A DNA stretch of 26,956 nucleotides from an uncultured Steroidobacteraceae bacterium (GTDB taxonomy: Bacteria > Pseudomonadota > Gammaproteobacteria > Steroidobacterales > Steroidobacteraceae): the NCBI GenBank assembly GCA_964459405.1, contig CAYWMY010000003.1, positions 1 through 26,956 of the forward strand, in the 5' to 3' direction. Shown here piece by piece: positions 2,673-26,956 of this stretch. The notes under the pieces were generated by a model. It had not been told where the DNA came from. It saw nothing but the letters and a program-made list of their open reading frames with translations, and made no database searches. The position numbers and the translations under genes were made by a program. How positions within the stretch are numbered: the first letter of the stretch is position 1; every line of letters begins with the position of its first letter.

Positions 2673-3995
2673 TCAGCCGGACTGGCGATGCCGGCGGGCA
2701 CCTCCGTGCCGGGCCGGACCCGACCCGCGGTGCAGCGCCCGCCCATGGGCTGAGGTCGGCCGCTGGCCGGGCCGCTTCGTCGCGTGGGCCTGCCGCGATG
2801 GTTCGGCCGCGGCGAGCGGCGCGAACTGGCGCGGTGCGTTCGGGGCGGCCGCCACGCCGGCCGGCACATCCGGAGTGGCCAGCACCGGGATCGGCCGGCG
2901 CAGCATCTTTTCGATCGCCCGCAGCCGGTCCTGTTCGTCGCGGCTCACGAGCGACACGGCCACGCCGGTGCGGCCCGCGCGGCCCGTACGGCCGATGCGA
3001 TGCACGTAGTCCTCGGGCACGTTCGGCAGCTCGTAGTTGACGACCTGCGGCAGTTCGGCGATGTCGAGGCCGCGCGCCGCGATGTCGGTGGCCACCAGGA
3101 CAGCGACGCGTCCGGCCTTGAAGTCGGCCAGCGCACGCGTGCGCGCACCCTGGGACTTGTTGCCGTGGATCGCAGCGCTGCTGATGCCCGCACGGACGAG
3201 CTGTTCGGCGAGACGGTTGGCGCCGTGCTTGGTGCGCGTGAACACGAGCGTCTGGAGTTCCTCGGCGGGGCTCTGCAGCAGGTGGGTCAGCAGCGCCTGT
3301 TTGCCGGCGGCCTCCACGCGATACACGCTGTGCTCAACCAGTTCGACGGGCGTGTTGCGCGGCGCGATATCGATGCTGACCGGCTCATGCAGCAGACCGT
3401 TCGCGAGCGCACGGATCTCGTCGGAAAAGGTGGCGGAGAACAGCAGGTTCTGGCGCCGTGCCGGCAGCAGCGCCAGCACGCGACGGATGTCGCGGATGAA
3501 GCCCATGTCCAGCATCCGGTCCGCCTCGTCCAGCACCAGGATCTCGATGCGTGAGAGGTCCACATGGCGCTCCGCGGCGTGGTCGAGCAGCCGGCCCGGC
3601 GTCGCGACCACGACGTCCACGCCGCCGGCGAGCGCCTCGACCTGCGGGCGCGGGCTCACTCCACCCACGATCAGCGCCCCGCGCTGCTGCAGGTGACGAC
3701 CCAGAGCCACCAGCGACTCGCCAACCTGGGCTGCGAGTTCGCGTGTGGGTACGAGCACCAGCGCGCGCGGCGCGCGCCGGCCCCGCGGCGCCGGAGTCGT
3801 TGCGTGCAGGCGCTCGAGGAGCGGCAGTGCGAATGCGGCGGTCTTGCCGGTGCCGGTCTGCGCCGCGGCCAGCAGGTCGCGGCCCTCGAGCACGGCGGGA
3901 ATGGCCCGCGCCTGGATGGGCGTGGGTGCGGCAAATCCGAGTTCGTGCACGGCGCGGGAAAGCGCCGGCGTCAGGCAGAAATCATCGAAGTTCAA
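2673..3995 (-). CDS. rhlE: DEAD-box ATP-dependent RNA helicase, RhlE-like
   Basis: Q motif (PTPIQ), [26 protein letters not shown] and [10 protein letters not shown] motifs, plus a basic C-terminal tail. TTG start at 3993-3995. Confidence 0.9.
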
Positions 3996-4119
3996 AGTGG
4001 TATCCAGTGATCAGGAAGGCCCACGAAGACACGGTCGTGGGACAGGGAAAACTCCAGCGGAAACGGATCGACCGGCCTCCCCTCACCGGGGGAGCGCGAT
4101 GTTCGCGCGTGTCTGGAGA

Positions 4120-4196
<77 letters not shown>

Positions 4197-4260
4197 ATGG
4201 CCTCGATCAGAGACGGCACCGCCGCTGTGGCGGCGCCCTGTCGCATCTGGCGGGGCCCGC

Positions 4261-4290
4261 ATCATACCGGGCGGCAGCCCCGGCGTCCAA
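4261..4290 (-). promoter_or_regulatory. Candidate sigma70 promoter for tRNA-Arg (and possibly rhlE)
   Basis: Minus strand TTGGAC (4285-4290), 18-nt spacer, TATGAT (4261-4266), then a GC-rich discriminator-like GCGGGCC as seen in stable-RNA promoters. Confidence 0.5.
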
Positions 4291-4296
4291 ATCGCC

Positions 4297-4325
4297 TTTT
4301 GACTCGGTCCACGAGCCGCTATACT
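4297..4325 (+). promoter_or_regulatory. Candidate sigma70 promoter for cytochrome c5
   Basis: TTGACT at 4299-4304 and TATACT at 4320-4325. The 15-nt spacer is short; the alternative -35 TTTTGA at 4297 gives 17 nt. Lies 34 nt upstream of the GTG start. Confidence 0.45.
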
Positions 4326-4358
4326 CCCGCGCCAGTCTTCTTCGGCCGCGGGGGCGCC

Positions 4359-4868
4359 GTGAGCAAGCACGACGATCACTTCTTCAATGTCTTCAGCGCG
4401 GTAATTGGCCTGTTGATCGTCGTGACGATCGGCATTTTCGTGCTCGCGCGCAACATGGGCGGTGTGCAGCTGGACCAGGTTGCCGCAGACCCGCTGCGCA
4501 GCCAGGAAGTCTCGCAGCGCATTGCCTCGCCGGCTCGTGTCGCCATCGCGGGAACCGACAACTCGGCACTGGCGATCGCACCGCCCCCGGGCGCCGAGAC
4601 CACGGTCGCGAGCACCCTGCCCGCGGACGGCGCAGCCACCTATCAGCAGGTCTGTGCGGCCTGCCACGACAGCGGCATCGCCGGCGCGCCGAAGACAGGC
4701 GATGGGGGCGCGTGGGGTCCACGCATCGCGCAGGGCAAGGACACGCTGTACAAGCACGCCATCGAGGGCTTCACGGGCAGCGCCGGCCTGATGCCGGCCA
4801 AGGGAGGTCGCCTCGACCTGCCCGACGACCTGGTCCGACAGGCCGTCGACCACATACTCGCGAAGTAG
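4359..4868 (+). CDS. Membrane-anchored cytochrome c5 (169 aa)
   Basis: GTG start at 4359 (MSKHDDHFFNVFS...), N-terminal TM helix, single CAACH at 4653-4667, GAPKTGD..W..RI and MPAKGG motifs typical of c5. Confidence 0.9.
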   Translation: MSKHDDHFFNVFSAVIGLLIVVTIGIFVLARNMGGVQLDQVAADPLRSQEVSQRIASPARVAIAGTDNSALAIAPPPGAETTVASTLPADGAATYQQVCAACHDSGIAGAPKTGDGGAWGPRIAQGKDTLYKHAIEGFTGSAGLMPAKGGRLDLPDDLVRQAVDHILAK

Positions 4869-4911
4869 GAACCCTCGCCGGGGGCATTCCCGGTATCCCG
4901 GATCGCGCCGC

Positions 4912-6429
4912 TCAGCGCGCAGGCTCCGGCCGCCGGTCGAGCCGGCGGTAGGTGATCGCCTCGGCCACATGCTCCGCTGCAATGCACGCGGCACCATCGA
5001 GATCCGCGATCGTGCGCGCCACGCGCAGCACTCGATGACACGCGCGCGCCGACAGGCCGAGCGTCGCCGCAGCGCGGGCGAGCAGCGCGCGGCCCGCATC
5101 GTCGGGTCGCGCATGTGCGTCCATCTGCGACGCGGGCAGTCGCGCGTTCAGGGCCTGCTGCCGCTCCAGCTGCCGTGTGCGCGCGGTACGCACCGCTTCC
5201 ACCAGGCCGTGTGATCCGCCGGCATCGCGCGCCATCGTCAGCGTCGTGAAGTCCACGCGCGGCACCTCGATGTGCAGATCCAGCCGGTCGACGAGCGGCC
5301 CGGACAGCCTCCCCACATAGCGCGTGATCTGCGCCGGCGTGCAGCGGCAACGTCCGCCCGGATCGCCCGCGTAGCCGCAGGGGCAGGGATTCATGGCCGC
5401 GACCAGCTGGAACGAAGCCGGGAACGTGGCGCTGCGTGCGGCGCGCGACAGCGAGATGACCCCGGTCTCGAGCGGCTCGCGCAGCGCTTCGAGCGCTTCG
5501 CGGCCGAACTCGGGCAGCTCATCGAGAAACAGCACCCCGTGATGCGCGAGCGAGGCCTCGCCGGGGCGCAGCGCGGCACCGCCACCGATCAGCGCCGCGC
5601 AGGTCGCGGTGTGATGCGGCGCGCGGAACACACGCCTTCGCGACAGCATGGGCCGGCCGCGCTGCTGCGCGAGCGAGGCCAGCATCGCGGACTCGAGCGC
5701 TTCCTGCCGCTCGAGTGGCGGCAGCAGCGCGGGCAGGCGTGAGGCCAGCATGCTCTTGCCCGCCCCCGGGGGACCGATCATCAGCAGGCTGTGGCCGCCG
5801 GCCGCGGCCAGCGCCAATGCGCGCTTCGCGGCCTGCTGGCCACGAATCGCATCGAGATCCGGCGCGGGTTCCACAGGCACCGGCAGCTCGATCTCCGGGT
5901 CCGCGAACGGCAGGGCCTCCCGGCCCCTGAGATGATCGACGACCTGCATGAAATTGCGCGCCGCGACGAGGCGCGCGTCGGGCACGATGCGTGCTTCGGG
6001 CAGTGCCGGCTCGGGCAACACGATTGCGCGCCGGGCCTGCGTGGCATGAACGATGGCCGGCACCAGGCCGCGTGAACCGCGCAGCTCGCCCGACAGTGAC
6101 AGTTCGCCAAGGAATTCCCACGCGTCGAGCCCCTCGACCGCGAGCTGCTCCGATGCGATCAGCACACCGAGTGCGACCGCCAGATCGTAGCGTCCACCCT
6201 CTTTCGGCAGATCGGCGGGCGCGAGATTGACTGTAATGCGGCCGGCGGGCCATTCGAACCCGGCGCTCACGAGTGCCGCACGCACGCGCTCGCGGCTGTC
6301 ACGCACGGAACCGCTGGCGAGGCCGACCAGCGAGATCTGCGGCAGTCCGGGGCCGATGTGGACCTCGACCGAGACGAGCGGTGCCTGAAAACCGAACTGG
6401 CCACGCGACAGGACCGTCGCGAGTGTCAT
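4912..6429 (-). CDS. comM: YifB/ComM Mg-chelatase-like AAA+ ATPase (505 aa)
   Basis: Lon-like N-terminal RITVNLAPADLPKEG, Walker A GPPGAGKS, FLDELPEF, CPCG..C.C cluster, SGPLVDRLD. ATG at 6427-6429. Confidence 0.93.
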   Translation of the reverse strand: MTLATVLSRGQFGFQAPLVSVEVHIGPGLPQISLVGLASGSVRDSRERVRAALVSAGFEWPAGRITVNLAPADLPKEGGRYDLAVALGVLIASEQLAVEGLDAWEFLGELSLSGELRGSRGLVPAIVHATQARRAIVLPEPALPEARIVPDARLVAARNFMQVVDHLRGREALPFADPEIELPVPVEPAPDLDAIRGQQAAKRALALAAAGGHSLLMIGPPGAGKSMLASRLPALLPPLERQEALESAMLASLAQQRGRPMLSRRRVFRAPHHTATCAALIGGGAALRPGEASLAHHGVLFLDELPEFGREALEALREPLETGVISLSRAARSATFPASFQLVAAMNPCPCGYAGDPGGRCRCTPAQITRYVGRLSGPLVDRLDLHIEVPRVDFTTLTMARDAGGSHGLVEAVRTARTRQLERQQALNARLPASQMDAHARPDDAGRALLARAAATLGLSARACHRVLRVARTIADLDGAACIAAEHVAEAITYRRLDRRPEPAR

Positions 6430-8664: not shown

Positions 8665-9084
<420 letters not shown>

Positions 9085-9114
9085 CGGCGGAGCGCGGGCG
9101 CCCGGAGAGTCCAG

Positions 9115-9576
9115 ATGCTGCGAAGACTGGGTTTGGTGCTCGCGCTTTGTTCCCTGACCACGGTCGCCGTGGCCGGAAGCGTGTACAAGTGGATGGACCG
9201 TGACGGCCAGGTGCATTACACGGACCGTCCGCCACGATCGGCCGACGCGAAGATCATCGCGGTGATCCAACAGTCGACCGGCGTGGCCGAATCCGAGGCT
9301 GCGGGCACCGGTGCGGGAGAACCGGACGGTGCGGCCGATGCGCCCGCCGAACCGACGCCTGAAGCCACGTCTGCCGCGATGCGGAAGGCCGTGGAAGCCG
9401 ACGTCGCCAGGACCCGTGCCGAACAGTGCAAGAAAGCGCAGGAGACCTACCGGAACTACGTCGAGTCCTACCGTGTGTATCGCGAGAAGGACGGCAAGCG
9501 CGAATATCTGAACGCCAAGGAACTCGACGAGGCACGCCTGCGCGCGCGTCAGGATGTCGATACCTACTGCAAGTAG
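9115..9576 (+). CDS. DUF4124-like exported protein
   Basis: Signal peptide, then VYKWMDRDGQVHYTDRPP (the family hallmark), a low-complexity linker and a C-terminal helical domain with two Cys. Confidence 0.8.
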   Translation: MLRRLGLVLALCSLTTVAVAGSVYKWMDRDGQVHYTDRPPRSADAKIIAVIQQSTGVAESEAAGTGAGEPDGAADAPAEPTPEATSAAMRKAVEADVARTRAEQCKKAQETYRNYVESYRVYREKDGKREYLNAKELDEARLRARQDVDTYCK

Positions 9577-9648
9577 CGGCCGGTCGACGCGGGCCAGGCT
9601 GGCCCGCCGGTGACGCCGACGCCGGCACGCTGAAGGAGATCTGCCCGC

Positions 9649-9753
9649 GCCGCACGACGGGGCGACTCCCGCATCGCATGCCGGCTTCGTCGAGTCCGTG
9701 TCGCCCGCCTTCACGGTCATGGCCGCACGACGGGTCGACCCTCGCACCGCATG
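9649..9753. repeat. Pair of 32-bp direct repeats (28/32 identical), 73-bp period
   Basis: 9649-9680 GCCGCACGACGGGGCGACTCCCGCATCGCATG and 9722-9753 GCCGCACGACGGGTCGACCCTCGCACCGCATG, separated by a 41-nt unique spacer. Confidence 0.85.
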
Positions 9754-9804
9754 ACGGCCCTGCGGCAGACTAGTGGCATCCGGAACGACCCTGGCGGGGT
9801 GGTC

Positions 9805-10671
9805 TTGAGAGTCGGATTCGCAGGCCTGGGTGCGATGGGCACCCACATGGCGCGCAACCTGCACCGCGCGGGCCTGCTGGCCGGCGTCTGGAACCGCACG
9901 CGCGCGCGCGCGGACGCATTCGCGGCGGAAACCGCAGTCATCGCTCCGGAGAGTCCCGCGGCGCTCGCTGCCGTCTGCGACACGATCGTGCTCTGTGTCT
10001 CCGCCGACGCGGATGTGCGCGAGATCGTCGACCGCATCGATCCCGCGCTGCGCCCTGGCCAGGCGATCATCGACTGCTCGACGATCGCGTCGAGGACGGC
10101 CCGGGAACTCGCCGCACGGCTCTCCGCGCGGGGTGTGGACTTCGTCGATGCACCGGTGAGCGGGGGTGTCGAAGGCGCTCGGCAGGGCACGCTCGCGATC
10201 ATGTGCGGCGGCGATGCGGCGGTTATCGAGCGGCTGCGCCCGGTGCTGGGCGCGATGGGGCGCACAGTCGTGCGGATGGGCGCCGCGGGCGCGGGCCAGG
10301 CGACCAAGGCCACGAACCAGATCCTCTGTGCGGGGGTCATTCAGGCCGTCGCGCAGGCCATGGCCTTCGCGAAGGCGGAAGAGCTGCCCCTCGAGCGCGT
10401 GATCGAGGTGCTGCGCCAGGGCGCCGGAGCCAGCTGGTACTTCGAGCATCGCGCGCCGTACATGGCCGAAGGCCGTTACCCGCCTGGCTTTCGCGTGGCA
10501 CTGCATGCCAAGGACCTGCGCATCTGCCGCGAAATGGCCGCGGCCCGCGGCCTGGAACTGTCCGTGATCGATGACGTGCTCGCGGCCTACGACCGGCTGA
10601 TCCAGGCCGGATCCGGGGACGAGGACATTTCCGCCATCTTCAGGCTGCAGCAGCGGGGCCGCGACGCGTGA
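9805..10671 (+). CDS. NAD(P)-dependent beta-hydroxyacid dehydrogenase (3-hydroxyisobutyrate dehydrogenase/GarR family)
   Basis: GFAGLGAMG Rossmann motif, VWNRT, DAPVSGG, GQATKATNQ with the catalytic Lys, and FRVALHAKDL. Start is uncertain (TTG 9805, GTG 9799 or ATG 9751). Confidence 0.88.
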   Translation: MRVGFAGLGAMGTHMARNLHRAGLLAGVWNRTRARADAFAAETAVIAPESPAALAAVCDTIVLCVSADADVREIVDRIDPALRPGQAIIDCSTIASRTARELAARLSARGVDFVDAPVSGGVEGARQGTLAIMCGGDAAVIERLRPVLGAMGRTVVRMGAAGAGQATKATNQILCAGVIQAVAQAMAFAKAEELPLERVIEVLRQGAGASWYFEHRAPYMAEGRYPPGFRVALHAKDLRICREMAAARGLELSVIDDVLAAYDRLIQAGSGDEDISAIFRLQQRGRDA

Positions 10672-11735
10672 GCGCCGCGGCTCCCCGGCCCGTCCATCTG
10701 GCGCTGCCGGACTTCTGCGCGGCGCGCGCCGTGCTCGGTGTCGCGCTGCTCGCAATGCTGGTCGCCCTGATGCTGACGCTGGCCGACCCGGCCTCGCTGG
10801 AATCCTTCTGGATCCGGCTGGCACGGCTCTCGCTGTTCCTGCTGTGGGTCGCGCTGCTCTCGGCGGGGCTGCTGTGCCGGCTGCGGGCACCGCTGCAGCG
10901 CCTCGGGGTCGCACGCGCCTCCGCCGCCGCGCTCGCGCTGATCGTCGCCATCACGCTCGGTGTCTCCGAGGTCGCGTGGCGGTTCGTGACCGTGCCCGGC
11001 CTGCTGCTCGGCGACGACGGCGGGTCGGCGGCCGCCCACTGGTCGTTCCTGCTGCGCAACGCGTTGATCGGCCTGATCGCGGGGGCGCTGGCCCTGCGCT
11101 ATTTCTACGTCTCGGGCCAGTGGCGCCGCAACGTCGAGGCCGAAGCGCGCGCGCGCGTGCGCGCGCTGCAGGCGCGGATCCGCCCGCACTTCCTGTTCAA
11201 CTGCATGAACACCATCGCGATGCTCACGCGCCGCGATCCAGCCGCCGCCGAGCGGGCCGTGCTGGACATCGCCGACCTGTTCCGCGCGAATCTCAGCGAG
11301 TCACGCGCGCGCATCCCGCTGGCCGAGGAAATCGACATTGCGCGCGCCTACCAGCGCGTCGAGGAACTGCGGCTCGGCGACCGTCTGCGCGTGGAGTGGG
11401 CGATGGACGCACTGCCGGCGGCACTCGAGGTGCCTGCGCTGCTGCTGCAGCCACTGCTCGAGAACGCGATCTATCATGGCATCGAAGCGCTCCCGGCCGG
11501 CGGCACGATCACCGTGATCGGCCAGTGCCGCGGCGACGACTATGAGATCGCGATCGAGAACCCGATCGCAGCGGCCGCGAATCCCGTGCGCGGCAGCGGC
11601 GACCGCATCGGCCTCGACAGCGTGCGCGAGCGGCTGGACCTCGCCTTCCCGGGCCGCGCCTCCGTCATCGCAACCGCAGCGGGCGGTGTTTTCCGCGTGC
11701 AGATTCGGCTGCCACTCGCGGCCGAGGACGGCTGA
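10668..11735 (+). CDS. algZ: LytS-type sensor histidine kinase, FimS/AlgZ-like
   Basis: Four N-terminal TM helices, LQARIRPHFLFN H-box, LQPLLENAIYHG N-box, IGL G-box. The GTG start overlaps the upstream TGA. Confidence 0.85.
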   Translation: MSAAAPRPVHLALPDFCAARAVLGVALLAMLVALMLTLADPASLESFWIRLARLSLFLLWVALLSAGLLCRLRAPLQRLGVARASAAALALIVAITLGVSEVAWRFVTVPGLLLGDDGGSAAAHWSFLLRNALIGLIAGALALRYFYVSGQWRRNVEAEARARVRALQARIRPHFLFNCMNTIAMLTRRDPAAAERAVLDIADLFRANLSESRARIPLAEEIDIARAYQRVEELRLGDRLRVEWAMDALPAALEVPALLLQPLLENAIYHGIEALPAGGTITVIGQCRGDDYEIAIENPIAAAANPVRGSGDRIGLDSVRERLDLAFPGRASVIATAAGGVFRVQIRLPLAAEDG

Positions 11736-21555: not shown

Positions 21556-22224
21556 TCAGCGCGCGAACAGCCTCGCTGGTGAGAACGCCCGCGCGCGCGC
21601 GCGGGCATGCTCGACGATCAGCCGATAATCGCTGGTCAGAACGCGTGGATCATGCGGTGCCGGGAAAGTGGCAACCAGAGCGCCCGAAGGACCCACGACA
21701 AACAGGCTCGAGCCATGCTCGATCGTGTAAGTTCCATCCGGGCGCACGATGCGCGCATACCCCAGCCCGAAAACCTGCGCCGTACGCGAGATCGCCTGCG
21801 GCGTGCCGGTCGCGGCCAGGAATCCCGGATTGAACGACCGCACATAGGATTGCAGTCGTGCGGCGTCGTCCCGTTCCGGATCAACCGTGATCAGCAGCAC
21901 GCGCGGACGGTCGGTGGCGGGAATGTCCTGCAGCTGGCGGTCCACCTGCGCGAGCATCGCGAGCGTGGTCGGGCAGACATCCGGGCAGGCCGTGAAGCCG
22001 AAGAAGACCAGGGTCCAGTGACCCTTGAACGCGTCCTCGCCGAAGGGCCGTCCGTCCTGGTCCGTGAGCGACAGAGCCGGCAGTGCGCCCGACTCGCTCA
22101 GCAGAGAAGCGCGCACCAGGGGTGGCGGCGCGGGCGGCGAGAACAGTGCGCGCGCGGCCAGGTACCCGAGTACCGTGGCGCCGACCACCAGCACGACGAG
22201 GCGGATCACCCGTGCGGTTGTCAT
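21556..22224 (-). CDS. SCO/SenC-family copper chaperone, N-terminally anchored (222 aa)
   Basis: FFGFTACPDVCP (CxxxCP), ITVDPERD, and a conserved His in IEHGS. ATGA overlap with the hemerythrin stop. Confidence 0.92.
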   Translation of the reverse strand: MTTARVIRLVVLVVGATVLGYLAARALFSPPAPPPLVRASLLSESGALPALSLTDQDGRPFGEDAFKGHWTLVFFGFTACPDVCPTTLAMLAQVDRQLQDIPATDRPRVLLITVDPERDDAARLQSYVRSFNPGFLAATGTPQAISRTAQVFGLGYARIVRPDGTYTIEHGSSLFVVGPSGALVATFPAPHDPRVLTSDYRLIVEHARARARAFSPARLFAR

Positions 22225-22631
22225 GGCTGCGGCTGCTTCCCGGCAACGAAGCGGTGCAGGCGCACATCGAAGCTCGCGAAATGATCCCCGAACCACGCCG
22301 ACAGACGCTCCGAGAAACGGGCCTCGTCGAGAATGCCCTGCTCGCTGACCTCGTCCATGATGTCGCGGATGTCATCGAGCAGCCGCTCGTGATCCTGCTT
22401 GTGTGCATCACGCTCGGGATAGCGCATGGCCTGCATGGACTTCTCTTCCAGCGCGAAATGCGCCGAAATGCGCGCGAGGATCTCGCCGAGGAATCCCTCG
22501 ACACGCTCAGGTGAATGATCCGTGCCGAGAGCAGCGTGCAGATCGTTGATCAGCTGGATCATCTCGCGATGCTCATGGTCCACTTCGGCGATGCCGATGC
22601 TGAACCGGTCCTGCCATTCGAGCACACCCAT
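22221..22631 (-). CDS. Single-domain bacterial hemerythrin (di-iron), 136 aa
   Basis: LEWQDRFSIGIAEVDHEH, HFALEE, HKQDH and HFASFD supply the usual His/Glu/Asp ligand pattern. ATG at 22629-22631 overlaps the upstream TAA; the track start at 22868 is an extension. Confidence 0.92.
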   Translation of the reverse strand: MGVLEWQDRFSIGIAEVDHEHREMIQLINDLHAALGTDHSPERVEGFLGEILARISAHFALEEKSMQAMRYPERDAHKQDHERLLDDIRDIMDEVSEQGILDEARFSERLSAWFGDHFASFDVRLHRFVAGKQPQP

Positions 22632-24745
22632 TACCGCGTCTCCCCGCCCGACAGCGTCGCCGGCACGAGCCGACGACCGAAACTGAAGGCGTTCTCCTTG
22701 CCGCGGAAGTCGATGACGAAATTCTCGCCGGGGGTGACCGTCACGGGGGCCGAGGTCGAGTAGTCGAATCCCGATGCACGCCCGCCGTCCCGCACACGGA
22801 CCGACGCCACGTGCGTGCCGGCCGGCACGCGGAAGCGCGCATAGACCGTCGACGGCCCGTCGTCCCACAGACCCGCCGGCTGATAGGTACCCGCGTGCAT
22901 ACGCCTGCCATCCAGGTCGAACTCGACGTATACGGGCCAGCGGCCGCGTTCACAGGTCGTCGGCCGGCGCTCTTCGAACGGCAGCTTCGCAAGCTCATCC
23001 GGCGTATAGCGCTTGCAGGGCTTCAGCGGCTGACCCGCGTGGCTGAAGCTCAGTTTCACCATGGCTTCGTCACGACCGAGCAGGCCGTAGGCCGGGCGGG
23101 TCGCGAACCAGGCAATGAACACAGCGACACCCGCAAGCACGGCCACCTGTCCAGCCACCCGGAGCGGCATGAGCAGCTGCCGCGGCGTGGCATGCCAGGC
23201 CCTGCCCGTGCGCCCCCTGGTCGGCGCTCCCGCGCGCTCGCGCAGCTGCGCACGGAACTCGCGCAGCTCATGCTGCAGGCGTCGGCCCTCGACCGCCGTG
23301 GTCCAGGAGACGGCGACGCGGTCGCGATCGACACGCTCGCGCAGGTACGGGTCGCGCTCGCTCGCGATGCGCTGCTCGACCCAGCGATCGCCCAGGCGGT
23401 GGAAGCAGTCGCCCGGGGCACACCCCGCGATCAGCACGCCGTCCGCCAGTTTCTTCGAGACCGCGAAATCAATGAACGACGGCGGCAGCATGCCCACGCA
23501 GGGCGCGGCGATCACGGCGACGCCGGGGTCCCGCAGCTGTTCGGCGCGGGTCGCGGGCTCGCAGCGGAACACGAGCACACGATCCTCGCCCTGCAGCGCT
23601 CCGGCCTCGGCCACCACGCGTTCACGGAGGGCCTCGATCGGCCGGTCCCCGAGCTCGATGCCGGGCACGAGCGCGCTCGAGCGCCGGAACGGCGTGGCCG
23701 TGGGGCATGCGCCCACGCACAGGCCGCAACTCGTGCACGCGTCGGGGTCGACGCGTGCCTCCTGATCGAACGTGAGCCCGTCGCTGCGCGGTACCATGGT
23801 AATGGCGCCATACGGACAGTCCGCGAAACAGCGCCCGCAGCCGTTGCAGTTGTCCAGGTGCACCACGGCGGGGGCCGGCTTGCGCAGCGGCGGCAGCCAG
23901 GGCATCAGCGTCAGCAGCACACTGCCGCCGACCAGCAGGGCCCAGAGCGTCCGGCCGTCCAGATAATCGAGCAGCGGGTAGACCGCGAGGTAGAACCAGT
24001 CGAGCCCGACCTCGAAGGCCATACGGTCGAGGTCGGCCGGCGCCTGGCTCAGGGCCGGCACGACCAGCGACAGCAGCAGCAGCGATCCGATCACCATCAG
24101 GCTGAGCGCTCGCGGCGGGTTGACGCGCGCGTGTGCATGCCGCTGGATGTGCACCCACATCATGAGCAGCATCACCAGCGGCACGGCGATGTGGATGTAG
24201 GCCATCAGCGTAAAGAAGCGGCCGCTCAGGTGCGTGCTGTCGAGGAAGTTGCGCGCGATGGGTTCGGCGAAGATGCCGATGCTGTCCAGCCATTCAGAGG
24301 TCGTGATCGCGACGTACTGTGCGAGCGCGTCCCATGCGAGCCAGTAGCCCGTGATGCCGCTGGCGTACAGGAACCAGAGCAGCGGCACGCCCGTGACCCA
24401 GGGGAACCAGCGGTTGCCGCGCATCCGGTCGAGCGAGAACTCCCGCAGCACGTGCAGCAGCACGACGATGACCATGCCGTCGGACGCGTAGCGGTGCAGG
24501 CTGCGCATGATGCCGCCCAGATACCACTGGTCGACCGACAGCTTCTCCAGCGAGCTGTACGCCTGCGTGACACCGGTATCGAAGAAGATGTAGACGTAGA
24601 TGCCCGTGACGGCGACGATCCAGAACAGGAACCAGCCGAGCGGTCCCAGGTGCACCATGGGATTCAGCGTCGGGCCGAAGATCGCGGCGCAGAACTGTTC
24701 GAGGCGCGCGAAGAACACGCGCAATGGAGCCTTGATGAAATTCAA
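22631..24745 (-). CDS. Cytochrome b / 2x[4Fe-4S] ferredoxin / MvhD-FlpD [2Fe-2S] / membrane-anchored C-terminal domain fusion (704 aa)
   Basis: Heme-b His pairs H84/H98 and H185/H199, GYWLAWD, CNGCGRCFADCP and CTSCGLCVGACP, MvhD-like C395, C416 and GCAPGDC (C442, C447), a TM segment at about 530-549, and a beta-rich C-terminus with C577 and C598. TTG start overlaps the upstream TGA. Confidence 0.88.
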   Translation of the reverse strand: MNFIKAPLRVFFARLEQFCAAIFGPTLNPMVHLGPLGWFLFWIVAVTGIYVYIFFDTGVTQAYSSLEKLSVDQWYLGGIMRSLHRYASDGMVIVVLLHVLREFSLDRMRGNRWFPWVTGVPLLWFLYASGITGYWLAWDALAQYVAITTSEWLDSIGIFAEPIARNFLDSTHLSGRFFTLMAYIHIAVPLVMLLMMWVHIQRHAHARVNPPRALSLMVIGSLLLLSLVVPALSQAPADLDRMAFEVGLDWFYLAVYPLLDYLDGRTLWALLVGGSVLLTLMPWLPPLRKPAPAVVHLDNCNGCGRCFADCPYGAITMVPRSDGLTFDQEARVDPDACTSCGLCVGACPTATPFRRSSALVPGIELGDRPIEALRERVVAEAGALQGEDRVLVFRCEPATRAEQLRDPGVAVIAAPCVGMLPPSFIDFAVSKKLADGVLIAGCAPGDCFHRLGDRWVEQRIASERDPYLRERVDRDRVAVSWTTAVEGRRLQHELREFRAQLRERAGAPTRGRTGRAWHATPRQLLMPLRVAGQVAVLAGVAVFIAWFATRPAYGLLGRDEAMVKLSFSHAGQPLKPCKRYTPDELAKLPFEERRPTTCERGRWPVYVEFDLDGRRMHAGTYQPAGLWDDGPSTVYARFRVPAGTHVASVRVRDGGRASGFDYSTSAPVTVTPGENFVIDFRGKENAFSFGRRLVPATLSGGETR

Positions 24746-25536
24746 TGTACGTTCCGCCAGGAAAGGACGATGGCAACGCCCACCATGCCGAGTGCAAGCA
24801 CTCCCGCGACGATCTCCATGATGAGCGAGGGATCGAAGCGATACTTGCCGCTCGCTGGATCATAGATGGTACACAACAGCTTGACCGAGCGGACGAGGTC
24901 GGACAGCGACCCTCGCTCGAGCGCCTGGCCGCGGATCAGCTGCTTCAGCGGCTCGACGAGCGCGGGCGGCCGGAGGTCCTGCCCGTAGACCTGCAGCGCG
25001 ACACGTCCGCCGGGGTCGATGACCGTGGTCTGGATGATGTGATCGAAACCCTTGGGCGACGCCTTGTAGCTGAAACCCACGTCGCGCATGAGTCTCTCCA
25101 TGGTCGCGGCGTCGGTGCTGGCGAAGATCCAGTCGGGCGTCACGACGCCGCGTTCCCGGGCGTAGAGACGCATGCGCTCCGGCGTGTCGTTCGGGGTGTC
25201 GAAGCCCACCGTCAGTACCGTGAAGCTCCCCGGCCCCAGTGCCTGCCGCGCAAGCTTCACGACCTCGCGCAGGTTCACGGTCAGCCCGGAGCAGATCGCA
25301 TAGCAGCTCGTATAGACAAGGCTCAGCACCACCGGCCTGCCGCGCAGTTCAGCGAAGCTGAACCGCGTGCCATCAGCGTCGATCAGCGCATGGTCACCGA
25401 CGACCCGGCCGATCGCCGCCTGGCTCGCGGCCAGTTCGGGATTCTCCGTGACGGGCACGGACCGGGCCGCAAGCAACGGCAGCAACCACAGCGCTGCAAC
25501 CACGGCCGCCCGGAATCTCGTTTGCACTGAAGGCAT
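24742..25536 (-). CDS. SCO-family protein with a signal peptide and a C-terminal TM anchor (264 aa)
   Basis: YTSCYAICS (C78xxxC82), TVGFDTPNDTP, His in GFDHII, and CTIYDPASGKY before a C-terminal hydrophobic helix. Confidence 0.87.
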   Translation of the reverse strand: MPSVQTRFRAAVVAALWLLPLLAARSVPVTENPELAASQAAIGRVVGDHALIDADGTRFSFAELRGRPVVLSLVYTSCYAICSGLTVNLREVVKLARQALGPGSFTVLTVGFDTPNDTPERMRLYARERGVVTPDWIFASTDAATMERLMRDVGFSYKASPKGFDHIIQTTVIDPGGRVALQVYGQDLRPPALVEPLKQLIRGQALERGSLSDLVRSVKLLCTIYDPASGKYRFDPSLIMEIVAGVLALGMVGVAIVLSWRNVH

Positions 25537-25615
25537 GTCCCGACCGCCGTCCCGTCAGCCCGCCCCGGGGCCACAGGTGGCTGCACCCGCCCCCCGCAAC
25601 AGCGGCACCCGCGTC

Positions 25616-25629
25616 TTGTCTCGCACCAA
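25616..25629. promoter_or_regulatory. Possible Crp/Fnr-family (FNR/DNR/NnrR) box
   Basis: TTGGT-GCGA-GACAA on the minus strand keeps the TTG-N8-CAA core but has 3 mismatches to TTGAT-N4-ATCAA. It lies 80 bp upstream of the SCO start. No clear -10 element. Confidence 0.3.
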
Positions 25630-25881
25630 GCGACTCTCCCGGATCGGCTCGAGGCCGCGCGCCGCCACAGGGTGGCAGCAGCCCGAGCCGGGCGGTTGCG
25701 ATCGATGGTACAACGGCGGGAGCCCGAAATGTGCCCGTGCACCGCGCAAGGGGGCTCAGGCTGAACGACAGGACCGGGACGAGGGAGCCGTCGCGTCGCA
25801 TGTCCGCGACCGCGGCATCGGATGGGCGCCGTGGCCACTTCGGGCGCCCGACGCCCGTTCGATTCTGGAAATCCGGGTGCC

Positions 25882-25913
25882 GCGCCCGCGCACAGCCCTC
25901 TGTGCGCGGGCGC
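25882..25913 (-). terminator. Perfect 14-bp GC hairpin 7 nt after the subunit I stop
   Basis: GCGCCCGCGCACAG-CCCT-CTGTGCGCGGGCGC. No U-tract follows on the minus strand, so it is a 3'-protecting stem or partial terminator rather than a classic one. Confidence 0.55.
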
Positions 25914-25920
25914 CTCGAGG

Positions 25921-26956
25921 TCACTTCAGCGGCCAGATCTCGGCCACGTACTTCCAGTTGACGAAGTAGTACAGCACGAAGGAGACGAAGAACACGCCCA
26001 CGAGGACCACGGTACCCGGGATGTACAGCGTGCCCTGGTTGCCGTAGCTCGCGACGGCCGCCGCGGACTTGGCGCCGCTCACAGGCCCCAGTTGCACGGC
26101 CTCCTTGTCACCGATCTTGCGGCCGAACAGCACCGTGCAGACAACGGTTACGACGTACATCGCGCCGCCCAGAGCCGCCATGATCGCCGAGATGCCGTTC
26201 AGCGCCAGCATCAGGAACGCCGCCGGCGAGTACTGGAACTGCGTCAGCGCATCGGCAAAGGTGATGTCCCAGTGCCGCCGCGGCACGCCCAGCGTGCCCG
26301 CGCCCATCATGAACAGCGAGATTCCCGCCGCGCCGAGCCCGAAGATGTACGGCTGCAGCTTGGCCACCGTCGGGAAGATCACCTCACGACGGAAGATCAG
26401 CGGCAGGACGAGGTACGTGATCGCCATGAAGGCGAGCGTCGTACCGGTCACGACCGTCGCATGGAAGTGACCCGGCACGTAGAGCGTGTTGTGCATCGTC
26501 AGGTTGATCTGCTCCGTTCCGAGCACGACGCCCGTGATGCCGCCCAGGAAGCCGAAGTACACGAGCGACATGAACATGCCCGAGAACGCCGGGTTGCCCC
26601 ATGGCGCCTTGCGCAGCCACTCGAACAGGCCCTTCGTGTAGCCCTTGGCGCGCTGCGCGGCCTCGATCGCGCCCGGCACGGTCATGCCGTGGATCATGCT
26701 GCCCATGACCGCCAGGTACATCGCATAGCTGGTATTGAAGATCTTCCAGCTCGAGCTGACACCCGGCTCCGCCAGCAGGTGGTGCGCGCTGGCGAGCTGC
26801 AGGAACAGGATGTACATCAGGTAGGCCGCACGGCTGACCTTCTCGGAGATCGGCTTGGCGCCCAGCACCATCGCACCGATGGCGTACCACACGGCCACGT
26901 GGGCCGAGACGTTGATCTGCTGGGAGGAATGGCCCATGGCCCACCACACCAGCTTG
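25921..26956 (-). CDS. Heme-copper oxidoreductase subunit I, B-family-like fold with Tyr-to-Gln active site (putative eNOR-type nitric oxide reductase), 5'-truncated
   Basis: The frame is open to the window edge (KLVWWAMGHSSQQIN...). CuB/FeB ligands: H at 26929-26931 and SAHH at 26779-26784. HNTLYVPGHFH (26461-26493) matches the ba3-type HNT..VPGHFH, and the VPRR arginine pair is present. The residue at His+4 is Gln, not Tyr. Confidence 0.85.
   Translation of the reverse strand, partial: KLVWWAMGHSSQQINVSAHVAVWYAIGAMVLGAKPISEKVSRAAYLMYILFLQLASAHHLLAEPGVSSSWKIFNTSYAMYLAVMGSMIHGMTVPGAIEAAQRAKGYTKGLFEWLRKAPWGNPAFSGMFMSLVYFGFLGGITGVVLGTEQINLTMHNTLYVPGHFHATVVTGTTLAFMAITYLVLPLIFRREVIFPTVAKLQPYIFGLGAAGISLFMMGAGTLGVPRRHWDITFADALTQFQYSPAAFLMLALNGISAIMAALGGAMYVVTVVCTVLFGRKIGDKEAVQLGPVSGAKSAAAVASYGNQGTLYIPGTVVLVGVFFVSFVLYYFVNWKYVAEIWPLK

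Follow-up and report, generated by a model that had tools for sequence, protein, structure and literature searches.

We examined a 26,956-nucleotide (nt) stretch of DNA from an uncultured Steroidobacteraceae bacterium (contig CAYWMY010000003.1, ~69% G+C; hereafter the window), in which five reading frames, all on the minus strand, lie within positions 21556-26956. They encode the C-terminal fragment of a heme-copper subunit I, a protein of the SCO1/SenC family (SCO-A), a fusion of cytochrome b with 2x[4Fe-4S] ferredoxin and MvhD/FlpD-type domains (the fusion), a bacteriohemerythrin and a second SCO1/SenC protein (SCO-B; Table 1). The minus-strand junctions of the last four genes read TTGA (SCO-A/fusion), TAATG (fusion/hemerythrin) and ATGA (hemerythrin/SCO-B). 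These start/stop overlaps, from which a coupled support module of the subunit I enzyme had originally been predicted, proved exact on rereading, and all four genes share the strand of subunit I. The module had also been placed directly downstream of subunit I; it does lie downstream, but a 384-nt gap with a hairpin intervenes. Every domain named in the original prediction was recovered by Pfam and NCBIfam. The results presented below connect SCO-A and the fusion with nitric oxide (NO) reductases of the eNOR type. We conclude that the module is an accessory electron-transfer or maturation set of a periplasm-facing copper enzyme, and that its architecture is one without a characterised member.

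Table 1. Positions of the genes, domains and intergenic elements in the window, and of related genes in other loci (L numbers)
Feature	Sequence	Position	Strand	Remarks
Heme-copper subunit I, C-terminal fragment	window	25921..26956	-	344 codons, gene runs off the window end; Pfam COX1 1.6e-33
Intergenic gap, subunit I/SCO-A	window	25537..25920	-	384 nt
GC stem-loop	window	25882..25913	-	14-bp perfect stem, starts 8 nt past the subunit I stop
SCO-A	window	24742..25536	-	264 amino acids (aa); Pfam SCO1/SenC 4.4e-10, divergent
Cytochrome b/2x[4Fe-4S]/MvhD fusion	window	22631..24745	-	704 aa, TTG start
Di-heme cytochrome b, fusion residues 1-290	window	23876..24745	-	b6 helices A-D and subunit-IV-like helices E-F
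2x[4Fe-4S] ferredoxin domain, fusion residues 293-350	window	23696..23869	-	cytoplasmic; Pfam Fer4 families
MvhD/FlpD-type domain, fusion residues 376-506	window	23228..23620	-	cytoplasmic, putative [2Fe-2S]; Pfam FlpD 2e-14
Transmembrane (TM) helix and beta-sandwich, fusion residues 526-704	window	22634..23170	-	periplasmic; AlphaFold2 (AF2) predicted local distance difference test (pLDDT) 94
Bacteriohemerythrin	window	22221..22631	-	136 aa; NCBIfam NF033749, Pfam Hemerythrin 6.8e-11
SCO-B	window	21556..22224	-	222 aa; Pfam SCO1/SenC 1.6e-37
Distant representative of the cluster	L083			SCO adjoins fusion
Distant representatives of the cluster	L085, L086			subunit I with GHPSQQ or GHTSQQ, then SCO, then fusion
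Distant representative of the cluster	L084			fusion faces SCO-UbiA and a heme-copper oxidase paralogue
Shorter subunit-I-like paralogue	L084	5323-6759	-	
Shorter subunit-I-like paralogue	L085	1237-2655		
Shorter subunit-I-like paralogue	L086	4092-5594		
Shorter subunit-I-like paralogue	L211	4020-5516		

The subunit I fragment carries GHSSQQ where GHPxVY would be expected, together with SAHHLLAEP. The set of heme-copper active-site histidines (one in helix VI and the HH pair of helix VII) is present both in the fragment and in L001, a 94% identical contig that supplies the genes beyond the window: a 56-aa membrane open reading frame (ORF), a 181-aa subunit II and a 566-aa subunit I. The solved structures nearest to subunit I were B-family ba3 oxidases (1e-42 to 1e-46), and in the alignment with them the second Gln of GHSSQQ falls on the cross-link Tyr of the ba3 motif GHPVVY. 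GHSSQQ[IV]N was read in all 70 subunit I segments of syntenic orthologues that cover the site. Subunit II of L001 has an intact CuA motif (H...CNEYCGLGHHTM), and subunit II is conserved in at least 67 loci. Neighbouring genes in related loci encode NirS, heme d1 functions, NosR, ApbE, NnrS, Crp/Fnr, CtaA and CtaB. The Gln-for-Tyr exchange reportedly goes back, as a diagnostic of eNOR, to Hemp and Gennis in 2008. A Gln at the cross-link Tyr position is the published eNOR diagnostic (PMC8756737). Biochemically, the eNOR of Rhodothermus marinus reduces NO and not O2; eNOR uses a modified heme a, and CtaA is found in many eNOR operons (PMC11214002). The published eNOR clusters likewise combine a CuA subunit II with a Gln-for-Tyr subunit I. 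Because of the Tyr-to-Gln exchange in GHSSQQ, the CuA subunit II in L001 and the denitrification neighbours, we accept the upstream enzyme as eNOR-like, that is, as a predicted Gln-for-Tyr, CuA-containing, B-family-derived reductase.

The association of module and enzyme was assessed from both sides. A scan of one genome per species seeded with the fusion gave at least 591 stretches encoding a relative, of which the best 80 were analysed; these 80 came from alpha- and gammaproteobacterial metagenome-assembled genomes (MAGs), with Steroidobacteraceae closest. Among them, the order small ORF-subunit II-GHSSQQ subunit I-(UbiA)-SCO-A-fusion was found on one strand in 73 of the 73 loci with enough upstream DNA. 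Distant fusion homologues (29-36% identity) retained the linkage to an SCO gene and to an eNOR-type subunit I or its paralogue (Table 1). The enzyme-seeded scan used a degenerate DNA pattern for W-x2-GH-x-[ST..]-QQ-[IVM]-N and returned 120 metagenome stretches, 118 of them genuine; this sample represents eNORs with the QQ[IVM]N motif, and archaeal, Chloroflexi and Bacteroidota eNORs may differ. The fusion was present in 28/31 motif-seeded loci with at least 4.5 kb of downstream sequence and in 46/53 with at least 3 kb, and SCO-A was present in 51 of the latter 53. Since synteny was seen from the fusion side and from the enzyme side, the association holds in both directions. These data bear out the idea of a dedicated accessory module of the Tyr-less enzyme (73/73 and 28/31, respectively), and the opposite expectation, that the fusion would occur mostly without a Tyr-less subunit I, failed decisively, as even distant homologues keep the link.

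The gap and the hairpin that separate the module from subunit I in the window might be taken as signs of a chance neighbourhood, with genes unrelated to the reductase. The gene order is conserved, however, across alpha- and gammaproteobacterial MAGs, at 29-36% identity and in the eNOR-seeded sampling, which effectively refutes this explanation; we regard it as extremely improbable. The arrangement lies far beyond chance: all related genome loci that are long enough show the same order.

Two proteobacterial-looking clusters with 53-59% identity to the window fusion, L022 (contig CAWKAE010000009.1) and L038 (CAYTIZ010000032.1), come from MAGs labelled 'Halobacteria archaeon' and 'Enterobacteriaceae'. 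We suspect mis-binning or mislabelling here; horizontal transfer is also possible.

The domain structure of the fusion is that of a redox protein reaching across the membrane. Pfam families covered residues 26-200 (Cytochrome_B), 295-350 (two 4Fe-4S motifs) and 406-503 (FlpD/MvhD), leaving ~200 C-terminal residues unmatched. In profile searches against the PDB, residues 15-205 matched cytochrome b6 (2.8e-39), residues 203-292 subunit IV of the b6f complex (3.3e-5), residues 292-372 the ferredoxin domains of the HdrA C-terminus and of FwdF, and residues 376-502 MvhD (2e-18). An alignment of 32 diverse members (27-55% identity to the window protein) showed H84, H98, H185 and H199, which occupy the bL/bH ligand positions of cytochrome b, to be invariant in all members. 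The same was true of the cysteines for two [4Fe-4S] clusters (C300, C303, C306, C310, C337, C340, C343 and C347). In the MvhD domain C395, C416 and C442 were invariant, and C447 of the window protein was lost in some distant members. An invariant Asp, D249 in 'DWFY', is aligned over the Glu of the Qo-site motif PEWY. At the Qi site the alignment shows no conserved His; a nearly invariant R202 is found at that end, and this change may possibly reflect docking of the fusion's own iron-sulfur (Fe-S) domain.

The AF2 model of the fusion (pLDDT 90, predicted template modelling score 0.88) comprises six TM helices, the cytoplasmic domains, one further TM helix and the beta-sandwich, with a disordered linker between the MvhD domain and the last TM helix. 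Foldseek aligned the model with bc1 cytochrome b over ~285-320 columns (helices A-F), and by both model and Foldseek the membrane core stops after helix F. As the N-terminus and the Fe-S domains are cytoplasmic, the beta-sandwich behind the last TM helix is therefore periplasmic. Judged by its ligands and by the model, the fusion would form a wire that starts at cytoplasmic Fe-S clusters, passes two hemes and ends at the periplasmic face. Neither a Rieske gene nor one for a cytochrome c1/f partner was noticed in the gene tables that we read, although no dedicated search for either was made. Because of this unsystematic finding, and because the core ends after helix F, we did not file the fusion as a subunit of a bc complex.

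The beta-sandwich belongs to no Pfam family and gave no PDB fold match at E<0.001. Cupredoxin, PCuAC and other known copper domains were considered as its identity and rejected, since only a generic similarity to beta-sandwich or carbohydrate-binding-module-like folds was seen.

The four genes of the window had been viewed as one conserved unit, and this view was not borne out. The conserved core consists of SCO-A, the fusion and the TM-anchored beta-sandwich. SCO-A adjoins the fusion throughout the genome and motif-seeded loci examined; in 60 of 78 loci no more than ~60 nt separate its stop codon from the start of the fusion, and in the window the two overlap. In ~48 of 70 close loci, a short fusion (506-532 aa) is followed by a separate gene for a protein of ~167 aa, so that the long fused form of the window is in the minority. 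In L088 this separate protein has 167 aa, and it matches the C-terminal TM helix and beta-sandwich of the window fusion at 1e-33. The hemerythrin is optional: its gene comes after the fusion in 70 of the 80 closest genome loci, whereas among the 19 fusion-bearing motif-seeded loci it was found in 8, and it is also missing from distant clusters. SCO-B is lineage-specific, occurring at the window position only in L001, L003 and L010 among the best 80 loci. About half of the loci have a UbiA-family gene, by context a heme O synthase (CtaB), between subunit I and SCO-A, which the window lacks.

SCO-A has the CxxxC motif (CYAIC) and the conserved His (FDH) of its family. It begins with a signal or anchor and ends in a TM helix, and its structure matches were PDB 3me7 (1e-14) and Sco1 (1e-5). 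In 79 orthologues CxxxC(P) and FDH..Q were conserved, an extra motif CT.YDP..G.YRFDY was present, and 76 of the 79 had the C-terminal TM helix. This helix and the CT.YDP motif are atypical for the SCO1/SenC family. We therefore describe SCO-A as a distinct SCO subfamily, predicted to be a periplasmic, copper-chaperone-like protein of the thioredoxin fold. With its CPDVC and conserved His, SCO-B is a membrane-anchored copper chaperone of the canonical SCO1/SenC kind.

The hemerythrin scored 96.3 bits against NF033749 (curated cutoff 84), and its translation has all seven di-iron ligand positions (H..HxxxE..HxxxH..HxxxxD). It is best seen as a cytoplasmic, optional accessory that probably binds O2 or NO. 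Its intact ligands, its place after the fusion in so many close loci (overlapping in the window) and the occurrence of CtaA/CtaB in related loci, together with the modified heme a of eNOR and the CtaA genes of its operons (PMC11214002), are compatible with an explanation in which the Fe-S/MvhD end of the fusion exchanges electrons with hemerythrin or heme A synthase. Such an exchange could serve the management of O2, which would be delivered to the O2-dependent heme A synthase on which the heme-a-type cofactors of eNOR depend, or the detoxification or sensing of O2 or NO in the cytoplasm. Against this, the hemerythrin is absent from 11/19 fusion-bearing motif-seeded loci and from distant clusters, the invariant partner is SCO-A and neither hemerythrin nor CtaA, and the transmembrane hemes and the periplasmic domain are left unexplained. 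We consider this explanation improbable.

Architectural variants of the fusion were surveyed by phmmer with domain queries among the 150 best representatives at 50% identity. The cytochrome b domain was found in 147 of these, the ferredoxin domain in 131, the MvhD domain in 116 and a detectable beta-sandwich in 72. One rare variant (P0208, CPR-type) joins cytochrome b to flavodoxin, flavin adenine dinucleotide (FAD) and NAD(P)H domains in the manner of a diflavin reductase. In L211 this diflavin variant lies in an eNOR cluster, directly after PCuAC(LpqE-like)-CtaG-SCO, with an Fe-S-type fusion earlier in the same cluster. A second rare variant combines cytochrome b with 2Fe-2S (Fer2), FAD and NAD(P)H domains. 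In a third, found in five contigs, a C-terminal cytochrome c replaces the beta-sandwich; the gene stands directly after subunit I and is followed by SCO-SCO-PCuAC. A single ORF for SCO, cytochrome b and ferredoxin was seen once, in one contig.

The FAD/NAD(P)H-domain paralogues and the Qo-like motif could indicate that the fusion is a quinol:NAD(P)+ or ferredoxin oxidoreductase working in reverse, or an NAD(P)H/ferredoxin:quinone oxidoreductase, that is merely co-regulated with eNOR. A quinol:NAD+ oxidoreductase activity has been proposed for a flavin-containing Ferrigenium paralogue (10.64898/2026.01.22.701106). By Pfam, however, the window fusion contains neither a flavin domain nor one for NAD(P)H. 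Electron transfer from b hemes to NAD(P)+ would run uphill against the membrane potential and is energetically implausible, and if the reaction ran forward at a P-side site, proton-motive force would be dissipated. The obligatory SCO-A and the periplasmic domain would also have no explanation, and we hold such an oxidoreductase to be very unlikely.

Behind the NADPH-type paralogue, L211 (10551-16801) encodes NnrS, SirB, a DsrC-like protein, Crp/Fnr, GcvH-like and thioredoxin-like proteins, a hemerythrin and DUF2249. This may be an NO-, copper- or redox-related neighbourhood that holds further partners.

The reading we favour, tentatively and with a likelihood somewhat short of even, is that the fusion module is a cytoplasm-to-periplasm electron conduit for the biogenesis or maintenance of SCO and copper sites. 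Copper-centre biogenesis is favoured because the constant partner of the fusion is a Cu-binding SCO, because the module is grouped with ctaB, ctaA, PCuAC and ctaG behind the hairpin, and because the NADPH-type paralogue has copper-chaperone genes as its neighbours. The variant with a cytochrome c tail, with SCO-SCO-PCuAC behind it, and the single ORF for SCO, cytochrome b and ferredoxin also point to a copper context. The original prediction had left two options: an electron link to the enzyme, and a DsbD-like conduit that keeps SCO thiols and copper reduced. The evidence leans towards something like the latter. With the gene identities, the conserved cofactor ligands, the topology and the two-way synteny with eNOR as a basis, we infer in which direction electrons flow, what accepts them and what the hemerythrin does, as follows. 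A cytoplasmic reductant would load the Fe-S relay of the fusion, and electrons would cross the membrane via heme bH and then heme bL to the periplasmic face. There, they would keep SCO-A reduced, by turning its Cu(II) into Cu(I), by acting on its CxxxC thiols or both, as is required for the assembly or repair of CuA in subunit II of eNOR. The likely activity on this reading is the reduction of Cu(II), of the thiols in SCO and at the CuA site, or of both. The optional hemerythrin might shield the Fe-S domains, which are labile to O2 and NO, or act as a sensor or buffer of these gases, in the microoxic conditions where eNOR works, and SCO-B would be an extra canonical CuA chaperone in the lineage of the window. 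NAD(P)H is the usual electron donor of diflavin and FNR-type modules; paralogues of these types therefore make outward electron flow the most plausible direction in the family.

Several observations weigh against a conduit for copper sites. The beta-sandwich has no conserved Cys/His/Met metal site, and ~10% of GHxxQQ clusters have an SCO gene and no fusion nearby. In L211 it is the NADPH-type paralogue that stands beside an SCO gene, and the Fe-S-type fusion does not. The variant with a cytochrome c tail looks, by analogy, more like a catalytic electron donor to CuA, and a frameshift artefact might account for the ORF that joins SCO to cytochrome b and ferredoxin in a single contig. The potentials of hemes b suit disulfide reduction poorly, which would make thiol reduction unusual and leave Cu(II) reduction feasible. 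The invariant Asp equivalent to the Glu of PEWY and the Qo-pocket elements would be superfluous in a simple wire and hint at quinone chemistry.

The retained elements of b6 and subunit IV, with Asp invariant at the position of the PEWY Glu, are among the arguments for a different function, namely that the fusion, together with SCO-A, the beta-sandwich or both, joins eNOR in a Rieske-independent supercomplex. This would feed turnover electrons into the CuA centre of eNOR, either across the membrane from cytoplasmic low-potential donors or from quinol that is oxidised in the Qo-like pocket. The function would also agree with our unsystematic inspection of the clusters, in which no Rieske gene was noticed, and with the near-universal synteny with eNOR. 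It would further agree with the clade in which cytochrome c, the classical CuA donor, takes the place of the beta-sandwich in a gene right after subunit I. In the Ferrigenium preprint (10.64898/2026.01.22.701106), both cytochrome b/[Fe-S] proteins and eNOR were part of the denitrifying proteome, and a supercomplex was proposed. On the other hand, the purified R. marinus eNOR turns over with ascorbate and tetramethyl-p-phenylenediamine without any such partner (PMC11214002). Quinol oxidation at a Qo site requires a high-potential first acceptor, and none is evident; the electrogenic benefit that has been proposed for eNOR would be cancelled if electrons ran from inside to outside. The genes also lie behind the hairpin or the heme O synthase gene, amid biogenesis genes, and the fusion is missing from ~10% of clusters. 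We judge the feeding of turnover electrons to be unlikely, although it is the main competitor of the conduit for copper sites.

More speculatively, the fusion might be a Rieske-less quinol oxidase of the Qo type with SCO-A as a mobile Rieske head. SCO-A, membrane-tethered and copper-binding, would then accept the first electron of quinol at the conserved PEWY-like pocket and bring it to the CuA centre of eNOR, and the second would pass via bL and bH to the Fe-S/MvhD relay and on to hemerythrin, ferredoxin or NAD(P)+. This is a long shot. If true, it would amount to a new type of respiratory complex, possibly electron-bifurcating, that reduces NO from quinol without bc1, and it would give SCO proteins a redox-carrier role never shown for any of them.

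The electron conduit for copper sites that we favour has counterparts in known systems. In Bradyrhizobium, DsbD/CcdA-TlpA-ScoI uses cytoplasmic reducing power to keep the cysteines of a periplasmic SCO and of the CuA site reduced. That system is a thiol-disulfide cascade starting from thioredoxin, whereas the fusion module has hemes b and Fe-S clusters. NosR, which acts with NosX/ApbE, is a membrane protein with cytoplasmic 2x[4Fe-4S] clusters and a periplasmic domain, encoded in the cluster of the CuA enzyme N2O reductase. It is thought to provide electrons for maintenance or activation and not for bulk turnover. NosR and the fusion are not homologous: NosR has a periplasmic domain that binds flavin mononucleotide, Fer4_5 motifs and no hemes. 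In 17 related loci NosR is encoded separately, and the fusion itself matched neither the NosR-type (FMN-bind, Fer4_5) nor the DsbD/CcdA-type Pfam families. By analogy, then, the fusion module may be a functional counterpart of DsbD/CcdA-TlpA-ScoI and NosR without being homologous to either.

With cytochrome b6 plus subunit IV and with bc1 cytochrome b, the fusion shares the four heme His in helices B and D, helices E-F and a segment homologous to that of the ef-loop motif. It differs in its truncation after helix F, the change of PEWY to xDWFY, the unconserved Qi-site His and the added cytoplasmic Fe-S domains. The tandem of 2x[4Fe-4S] and MvhD matches HdrA2 residues 569-770 and the solved MvhD, which form an inter-protein relay in the Hdr/Mvh, Flx and Qmo complexes. 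The context of the fusion, however, lacks the HdrA flavin domain, HdrBC, hydrogenase and Qmo partners and is that of an aerobic or microoxic denitrifier, not of an anaerobe. In NOX/FRE/STEAP and MsrQ-type proteins, electrons enter from cytoplasmic NAD(P)H or flavin, pass two stacked b hemes and reduce an extracytoplasmic metal or protein. This is also the logic of the CPR-type paralogue P0208. The heme scaffold of the fusion, which is of the cytochrome b6 type and not a ferric reductase domain, is unrelated to theirs, and Fe-S clusters stand in for the flavin.

Hemerythrin-like proteins such as NorA and DnrN/YtfE-RIC are linked to NO metabolism, and bacteriohemerythrins are protective or carry O2. 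The window hemerythrin is likewise a four-helix protein with a di-iron site, its gene accompanies that of an NO reductase, and it may plausibly bind NO or O2 or protect Fe-S clusters. It differs from the RIC family in scoring as a true bacteriohemerythrin (NF033749). The norSY-senC-orf1 (sNOR) cluster of ammonia oxidisers (PMC4940428, PMC3764937) also has a B-family-derived candidate NO reductase followed by an SCO gene (senC) and one more ORF. Its active site is different, and a homology of orf1 to the fusion could not be established.

Murali et al. 2024 (PMC11214002), who defined eNOR, mention CtaA alone as an operon companion. According to a Ferrigenium straubiae preprint of 2026 (10.64898/2026.01.22.701106), common members of the operon are heme O synthase, sco1 and an 'eNOR scaffold protein of unknown function'; the two cytochrome b/[Fe-S] genes of the Ferrigenium operon are described there as 'rather unusual'. 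In our sample, a cytochrome b-2x[4Fe-4S]-MvhD gene was present in ~90% of GHxxQQ clusters. We found no functional study of the fusion module in the literature, nor a domain dissection, topology, SCO pairing or synteny statistics. The earlier statement that the module had no functional characterisation thus stands, with the qualification that cytochrome b/[Fe-S] genes are already mentioned in that preprint.

The enzymes of the eNOR type are a recently recognised, widespread source of the greenhouse gas N2O, and automatic annotation calls them oxidases. An uncharacterised transmembrane heme/Fe-S protein, together with its special SCO partner, is encoded in most of the proteobacterial GHxxQQ eNOR clusters. 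This module likely sets whether eNOR is assembled or fed with electrons, and under which O2, NO and copper conditions. As a copper or thiol reductase, it would represent a new route of CuA biogenesis, independent of DsbD and TlpA. As an electron donor, it would require the electron-transport scheme and the energy yield of aerobic denitrification to be rewritten. In either case, the subunit I motif, SCO-A and the fusion provide a better set of annotation markers for eNOR clusters, and a testable genetic target.

Two further ORFs accompany the enzyme. The 56-aa ORF with a single TM helix (L001 6363-6533) belongs to no Pfam family and precedes subunit II in ~63 of 80 genome loci; it is a candidate for a small third subunit of eNOR. 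A second, shorter subunit-I-like protein of 470-500 aa is often encoded in or beside eNOR clusters (18 of the 118 motif-seeded loci; Table 1). It keeps the GH and HYH histidines (WGGGHxLQF) and lacks the helix-VII HH pair, so that it is not predicted to bind CuB or FeB in the normal way. This paralogue might be the 'eNOR scaffold protein' of the Ferrigenium preprint.

The hairpin in the gap downstream of subunit I has a predicted RNA folding energy of -37.2 kcal/mol (z = -3.65) and no T-tract. In L001 the stem is kept and the loop varies. We regard the hairpin as a candidate attenuator or mRNA-stabilising element between the structural and the accessory genes. The possibility that the gap is a decayed heme O synthase gene was ruled out, since tblastn with UbiA orthologues gave no match in 25537-25920. 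Scans of the same 384 nt for sigma-70-like and FNR-type sites found neither.

Upstream of the first gene of the L001 cluster (6270-6283) lies a perfect palindrome of the FNR/DNR/NnrR type, TTGACCGAAGTCAA, ~25 nt before a TATACT hexamer and ~80 nt before the 56-aa ORF. By our own estimate the spacing is class II-like, which suggests that the eNOR operon is under O2- or NO-responsive control. In the window, an FNR-like palindrome, TTGATGAAATTCAA, covers exactly the overlap of the SCO-A stop and the fusion start (24732-24745). It has one mismatch to TTGAT-N4-ATCAA, is the sole single-mismatch site of the window, lies inside coding sequence and is identical in L001. It may be a chance occurrence or an internal regulatory site.

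The remaining genes of the window are of the housekeeping type: ubiD, an ABC-2 transporter with an HlyD-like protein, pspC, hemC, an epimerase gene, amtB and a ComM/Mg-chelatase-like gene. A 728-aa ORF on the minus strand (8728-10914) matched no Pfam family at E<=1e-5 and may be a spurious long ORF in DNA of 69% G+C or an unannotated protein. In L001, genes for ferrous iron transport (feoA-feoB-feoB-associated, 3600-5988) are divergent from the eNOR cluster; NO reductases are reported to use a non-heme FeB site, which lends interest to feo genes near the cluster.

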